A stretch of 410 nucleotides of DNA from Escherichia coli (lineage in GTDB: Bacteria > Pseudomonadota > Gammaproteobacteria > Enterobacterales > Enterobacteriaceae), in the NCBI RefSeq assembly GCF_003334305.1, contig NZ_QOWS01000078.1; one strand, 5' to 3'. The translations under genes and the position numbers were made by a program. Shown piece by piece: positions 1 to 410 of the stretch (position 1 is the first letter of the stretch; each line of letters starts with the position of its first letter). The notes under the pieces were generated by a model. It saw only the letters and a program-made list of their open reading frames with translations. It was not told where the DNA came from and did not search any database.

Positions 1-410
1 CTGGATATCGATATCCCGTATGCGACGGACCCGGCAGGAAACCGGCTGCCGGACCCGGAACTGCACCCGGACAGCACGCTCACGGCGTGGCCGGATAACC
101 GCATCGCGGAAGATGCGCACTATGTCTACCGCCACGATGAATACGGCAGGCTGGCGGAGAAGACGGACCTCATCCCGGAAGGGGTTATCCGGATGCACGA
201 CGAGCGGACCCACCACTACCATTACGACAGCCAGCACCGTCTGGTGTTCTACACGCGGATACAGCACGGCGAACCACAGGTGGAGAGCCGGTACCTCTAT
301 GACCCGCTGGGCCGCCGGACGGGAAAACGGGTATGGCGGCGGGAGCGTGACCTGACGGGGTGGATGTCGCTGTCGCGTAAACCGGAGGAGACCTGGTACG
401 GGTGGGACGG
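1..410 (+). CDS. Rhs-family / YD-repeat protein, conserved core region (internal fragment, partial at both 5' and 3' ends; frame 1, codon 1 = nt 1-3)
   Basis: Seen in sequence: frame +1 is open for all 136 complete codons with no stop. Codon usage is typical of a real enterobacterial-type gene (ctg, ccg, gcg, acg, cgg preferred). The translation contains three canonical YD-repeat motifs and the stretch [38 protein letters not shown], which I recognise from memory as the late core of E. coli Rhs proteins (RhsA/B/C-type). High GC (about 64%) fits Rhs cores. The paralog cannot be assigned from 410 bp, so no gene symbol is given. Confidence 0.93.
121..153 (+). other. YD-repeat motif (protein-level) [11 protein letters not shown]
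   Basis: Frame +1 translation of nt 121-153 gives [11 protein letters not shown], a variant of the Rhs/YD repeat consensus (Y.YD..GRL). Confidence 0.75.
217..243 (+). other. YD-repeat motif (protein-level) YHYDSQHRL
   Basis: Frame +1 translation of nt 217-243 gives Y-H-Y-D-S-Q-H-R-L, matching the Y.YD...RL repeat pattern. Confidence 0.75.
292..318 (+). other. YD-repeat motif (protein-level) YLYDPLGRR
   Basis: Frame +1 translation of nt 292-318 gives Y-L-Y-D-P-L-G-R-R, a near-consensus YD repeat (Y.YD..GR.). Confidence 0.8.

Follow-up and report, generated by a model that had tools for sequence, protein, structure and literature searches.

The 410-nt stretch of DNA analysed here (the window) lies inside an rhs gene and is 100% identical to nt 270644-271053 of Escherichia coli strain GE3 (NZ_CP012376.1). 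The host CDS, annotated as "RHS element core protein", occupies 4,236 nt of the 16.4-kb locus L001 (L001 5271-9506). The window starts at L001 8001, i.e. 2730 nt (910 x 3) into the CDS; therefore, frame +1 is the true frame, and this frame is open across the whole window without a stop. The record annotation places tssB, tssC, hcp and vgrG immediately upstream of the rhs CDS, an arrangement that is also present in the loci L010, L011 and L012. The features of the window are as follows:

1..410, plus strand: internal part of the CDS for a vgrG-linked Rhs core protein, codons 911-1046 of 1411, corresponding to RHS_core profile positions 909-1044 of 1261
3..16, no strand: perfect palindrome GGATATCGATATCC, identified by reverse-complement identity
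4..9, no strand: first GATATC (EcoRV), codons Asp912-Ile913, from the in-silico digest
10..15, no strand: second GATATC (EcoRV), codons Asp914-Ile915, from the in-silico digest; codon 914 is CGC (Arg) in most paralogs
7..12, no strand: ATCGAT (ClaI) at the palindrome centre, from the in-silico digest
8..11, no strand: TCGA (TaqI) at the palindrome centre, from the in-silico digest

The full-length host protein matches the NCBIfam profile NF041261 (RHS_core) with 2618.9 bits, the cut-off being 2000, over residues 1-1258 of 1411, and the peptide encoded by the window alone matches the same profile at positions 909-1044 of 1261 with E = 1e-92. Moreover, the protein matches TIGR01643 (YD_repeat) in six stretches, TIGR03696 (RHS-associated core domain) at residues 1181-1258, and the Pfam families RHS (PF03527) and RHS_repeat (PF05593). 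Of the 5,426 complete E. coli genomes, 3,720 carry homologs of the window, at 10,357 places in total, and identity between the host gene and other rhs genes collapses beyond gene nt ~3750. In total, we conclude that the gene around the palindrome is a known T6SS-linked E. coli Rhs core, a YD-repeat toxin shell, and that there is nothing unusual about the gene.

Two observations concern the 3' end of this gene, outside the window. In Pfam, the variable C-terminal toxin tip of the Rhs protein (L001 ~9171-9447) weakly matches YkuD (PF03734, E = 7e-4), the catalytic domain of L,D-transpeptidases, which hints at a peptidoglycan-targeting tip. The ORF downstream (L001 9484-9876) overlaps the rhs CDS and is presumed to be the immunity gene; it matched no family in NCBIfam. 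Separately, in E. coli J-8 (NZ_CP047002.1, L014 1-2000), a chromosomal mcr-1.1-pap2-ISApl1 unit lies directly upstream of a DUF3969 gene, which in turn precedes an rhs gene with the palindrome allele; the mcr-1.1 insertion is present there in one strain.

The initial annotation described nt 3-16 as exactly self-complementary and as containing two adjacent GATATC sites that encode D-I-D-I in frame +1, and both descriptions are accurate. Nt 1-18 of the window read ctGGATATCGATATCCcg, and the 14 nt from position 3 equal their own reverse complement with a spacer of 0; the symmetry ends there, with T at nt 2 and C at nt 17. In the in-silico digest, the two GATATC sites abut each other, and GATC is absent from the palindrome, which leaves no overlap with a Dam site. 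In translation, the surrounding codons read L-D-I-D-I-P, so that the palindrome, at gene nt 2733-2746, consists of the codons for Asp912-Ile913-Asp914-Ile915 together with the third base of the Leu911 codon and the first of the Pro916 codon.

The palindrome follows directly from the spelling of the protein sequence. Asp-Ile spelled GAT-ATC gives by itself the palindromic hexamer GATATC, Asp-Ile-Asp-Ile spelled in this way gives two abutting hexamers and hence a 12-bp palindrome, and the G that ends the Leu codon CTG together with the C that opens the Pro codon CCG, Pro codons always beginning with C, extends the symmetry to 14 bp. In the host gene, GAT makes up 45% of the Asp codons, ATC 57% of the Ile codons, and 68% of the Leu codons end in G; given LDIDIP and the codon usage of the gene itself, the probability of the 14-bp palindrome is 0.044.

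The initial annotation also regarded a perfect palindrome of this length as uncommon. For a single window this holds: a 410-nt window of the same composition is expected to contain 0.037 perfect palindromes of 14 bp or more, and at least one was present in 726 of 20,000 mononucleotide shuffles (3.6%) and in 876 of 20,000 codon shuffles (4.4%). It does not hold across the genome, since four perfect palindromes of this length or longer are already present in the 16.4-kb locus L001. Thus, the palindrome is mildly unusual in one window and routine genome-wide or in a scan of many windows.

The same codon usage bears on the suggestion that the site is relevant to restriction, i.e. that two EcoRV targets and one ClaI target have been kept or tolerated through selection linked to restriction-modification. 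The sites themselves are real, as the digest confirmed, and the host gene contains four GATATC sites while ~0.5 are expected from base composition. However, this excess is accounted for by coding, because three of the four Asp-Ile dipeptides of the host protein are written GATATC and supply three of the four EcoRV sites. Moreover, related alleles lose one or both EcoRV sites without any other change, and nothing in the 16-kb neighbourhood (L001) ties the locus to an EcoRV-type system. The digest bears on the sequence alone and not on any biological relevance of the sites, and we consider selection linked to restriction-modification a very improbable explanation.

To follow the four codons through related genes, we compared them across paralogs, orthologs and other species. 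The K-12 paralogs rhsA, rhsB and rhsC read GGATATCCGCATCC at this place, and rhsD, rhsE and the vgrG-linked rhs of O104:H4 read GGACATCCGCATCC; both spellings encode D-I-R-I. The ybfO fragment reads GGGCATTGATATCC and encodes G-I-D-I. In L010 and L011, which are vgrG-linked and 94-96% identical to the host gene over the window, D-I-D-I is kept and is spelled GGACATTGATATCC. The E. albertii ortholog (93% identical) also carries GGACATTGATATCC, while a second E. albertii copy encodes D-I-R-I. In other genera, the palindrome codons encode D-I-R-L (Citrobacter youngae) or D-I-T-L (Superficieibacter and Yokenella).

The frequency of the alleles was determined in the 5,426 complete E. coli genomes, a phylogenetically unbalanced collection, with 30-mers for which at least 28 contiguous exact bases across the site were needed. 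The palindrome allele GGATATCGATATCC was found in 2,085 of these genomes, at 2,706 places, and the synonymous allele GGACATTGATATCC in 271. The alleles that lie a single step between the two were found in one genome (GGATATTGATATCC) and two genomes (GGACATCGATATCC). All four synonymous combinations at the two variable sites are therefore present in E. coli, on diverged mosaic backgrounds. Among nine sequences of the D-I-D-I lineage, third-codon positions vary at two of the six sites in the palindrome codons and at 34 of the 136 in the whole window.

Altogether, synonymous variation within the palindrome shows no deficit, and the palindrome bears no sign of selection. Symmetry is not conserved beyond what the protein needs: synonyms that break it are carried by 271 + 1 + 2 E. 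coli genomes and by E. albertii. The initial annotation had named free synonymous variation that destroys the palindrome in homologous rhs cores as the result that would speak against selection, and this is the result that the comparison across rhs paralogs and orthologs gave. The higher count of the palindrome allele relative to the synonymous allele (2085 genomes vs 271) could be read as a preference; it is equally expected from the shared descent of 14 nt among alleles that are 95-100% identical.

Codon 914 (window nt 12) lies in the Rhs shell and has a charge-reversing polymorphism, being Asp in the D-I-D-I lineage, Arg in rhsA-E and Thr in Superficieibacter and Yokenella; GAT and CGC differ at all three positions. 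In the cross-species scan, in which species-representative genomes were searched for the adjacent motif PYATDPAGN in degenerate form, only 10 loci were returned. Five of these were left out as independent species, since they are short MAG or draft contigs and probably represent mis-binned or contaminating Escherichia DNA. These five contigs (L019, L020, L021, L023 and L024) are labelled Akkermansia muciniphila, Collinsella, Lentisphaerae, Oscillospiraceae and Frankia, and carry an E. coli-type rhs core with 83-99% identity in blastn with the window; the palindrome is present in two of the five.

A perfect 14-bp dyad is typical of the binding sites of dimeric proteins, and the palindrome could in principle be an embedded operator or recombinase site. 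However, it lies 2.7 kb inside the ORF, and a scan of the window found no promoter-like or terminator-like site. Moreover, the palindrome is absent from the paralogs and from the orthologs in E. albertii and other genera, and no second copy is present in the 16-kb locus. With these observations, a binding site for a dimeric protein is an extremely improbable reading.

Alternatively, a cruciform or hairpin could be extruded from the palindrome, at the DNA or the mRNA level, and in this way affect replication, recombination, transcription or translation of rhs. Short inverted repeats have been mapped across the E. coli genome by Miura et al. 2018, who ascribed cruciform potential to perfect repeats with units of 5 bp or more, spacers of 0-8 bp and an overall length of 13 bp or more (PMC6060812). 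With its 7-bp unit, spacer of 0 and total of 14 bp, the palindrome is a perfect inverted repeat that falls within this permissive screening rule. However, in the same study, repeats with units of 5-7 bp were placed quite randomly, and enrichment was confined to gene ends, promoters and the vicinity of start codons rather than the middle of ORFs (PMC6060812).

Folding energies, which were computed on single strands, likewise argue against such a structure. With a minimal loop, the 14-mer forms only five A/T-rich pairs around a 4-nt loop, with -1.2 kcal/mol. The fold of the 38-nt context is no better than that of shuffled sequences (z = +0.72; 157 of 200 shuffles at least as good), and the RNA minimum-energy fold of the surrounding 100 nt is ordinary (z = -0.12) and omits the palindrome. 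Extrusion of 14 bp would relax only ~1.3 helical turns, which would not cover the usual cost of cruciform formation. Finally, the palindrome is not conserved in paralogs and orthologs. The suggestion that the site could be cruciform-prone is thus true only in the trivial sense that it formally satisfies a permissive definition, and we give very little credence to a functional cruciform or hairpin.

As a candidate RNA element, the window was set aside as well; neither strand had an Rfam match at E up to 1, and the 100-nt fold was ordinary as described above. A far stronger hairpin than that of the palindrome is available at window 31-37 and 46-52, where the G+C-rich sequences CCGGCAG and CTGCCGG form a perfect 7-bp inverted repeat with an 8-nt spacer that codes for P-A-G-N-R-L-P. 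This repeat makes the only stable local stem in the 100-nt RNA fold and is probably also incidental.

Two features of the region concern the history of the gene around the palindrome. The rhs gene is mosaic, its segments differing in their affinities, and one step in divergence coincides with the palindrome: divergence from the rhsD/O104 lineage falls from 29% to 6% exactly at this place (window 1-20; L001 7998-8016; gene nt 2728-2746), with 44 mismatches to the vgrG-linked rhs of O104:H4 in the 150 nt that end at gene nt 2742 and nine in the next 150 nt. Several other mosaic steps are present in the gene. In addition, two 5'-truncated orphan rhs fragments, each consisting of core and tip, begin their core homology here. 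In K-12 ybfO, core homology begins at gene nt 2728, 5 nt before the palindrome, and in an orphan fragment of O157:H7 it begins at gene nt 2741, inside the palindrome (orphan coordinates L007:7134 and L009:733). The two orphans belong to different lineages and neither carries the palindrome; in other orphan rhs fragments, core homology begins at gene nt 3363-3605.

In the C-terminal displacement model of Rhs diversification (Jackson et al. 2009), tips move together with a core piece of variable length (PMC2935791). The 5' ends of the orphans and the divergence step would fit this model (PMC2935791). An exchangeable 3'-core arm of ~1 kb, used in tip swaps, might then have its 5' edge at codons ~910-915, and the palindrome, or its quasi-palindromic relative, might help to set the breakpoint; with n = 2 orphans, we regard this as quite improbable.

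As to how the palindrome allele arose, GGACATTGATATCC is plausibly the older D-I-D-I spelling, because ...CATTGATATCC is common to E. albertii and the ybfO fragment, and the palindrome would then be derived from it through a C-to-T change at nt 6 and a T-to-C change at nt 9. Slippage or duplication in tandem was rejected as the source of (GATATC)2, the site being of equal length in all paralogs and orthologs and the difference consisting of a codon replacement (CGC or ACC vs GAT) with no insertion.

The two changes could have been made in a single concerted event acting on the quasi-palindrome GGACATTGATATCC rather than by two independent point mutations, either by a template switch in which one arm served as the template for the other or by gene conversion over a very short tract, with a copy of the rhsA/B/C type (CTGGATATC...) as the donor. 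Both differences perfect the symmetry, the haplotypes two steps apart are common (2085 and 271 genomes) and those one step apart are rare (1 and 2 genomes), and CTGGATATC is present exactly at the palindrome place in rhsA/B/C. However, both single-step haplotypes do exist; the two variable sites are 3 nt apart and fully linked anyway; and once both codons have changed synonymously, the chance of obtaining the palindrome is ~1 in 2, since Asp has one other codon and Ile two. A template switch would also have had very short arms, of 7 nt, to act on. Owing to the mosaic local backgrounds, the order of events is unreadable: among the genomes with single-step haplotypes, the closest alleles to those of RM9088 and A27 carry the palindrome and the closest to that of W24 lacks it, which gives no readable polarity. 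A concerted event thus seems unlikely. Two substitutions, a short conversion and a template switch are not separable from the sequence data, and a concerted origin, which concerns the origin alone, would leave the reading of function unchanged.

In total, we conclude with high confidence that the palindrome is a by-product of the coding sequence without a function of its own. The initial annotation had judged it most likely incidental to coding, and this judgement is supported by its position in a well-known Rhs core gene (NF041261, 2618.9 bits) the codons of which vary freely in paralogs and orthologs. The frequency of the palindrome is attributed to descent within one rhs lineage rather than to selection acting on DNA structure or on a recognition site. 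The palindrome is a lineage marker, one allele among several at this spot in rhs, and is presumably without effect in the cell. As a candidate, it is removed: the string is real, it is not a biological element, and it matters very little. It retains a practical use, since the tandem EcoRV/ClaI site is a handy marker that tells this rhs allele, present in 38% of complete E. coli genomes, from the paralogs and from the synonymous sister allele. Moreover, it illustrates that Asp-Ile written as GATATC automatically makes palindromes in coding DNA.

Three known systems can be set beside this locus. Mutation by template switching at quasi-palindromes has been described in the Ripley model and in reporter work in E. 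coli. The palindrome allele shares with it that both changes turn an imperfect palindrome, in the likely older allele, into a perfect one; it differs in its 7-nt arms and in the presence of single-step intermediates, and statistically it is indistinguishable from two ordinary synonymous substitutions. Compared with the inverted repeats mapped by Miura et al. 2018, the palindrome fits the definition but lies in the middle of an ORF and belongs to the randomly occurring 5-7 bp class (PMC6060812). Finally, among the Rhs core genes of E. coli, the window shares 81% identity with rhsA/B/C, 90% with rhsD/E and 95-100% with vgrG-linked rhs genes, and downstream of the host gene come a small ORF, an ISAs1-family element and another copy of rhs, a layout typical of Rhs loci; relative to K-12 rhsA-E and vgrG-linked rhs, the sole difference is the spelling of four codons, GAT-ATC twice, giving D-I-D-I vs D-I-R-I.
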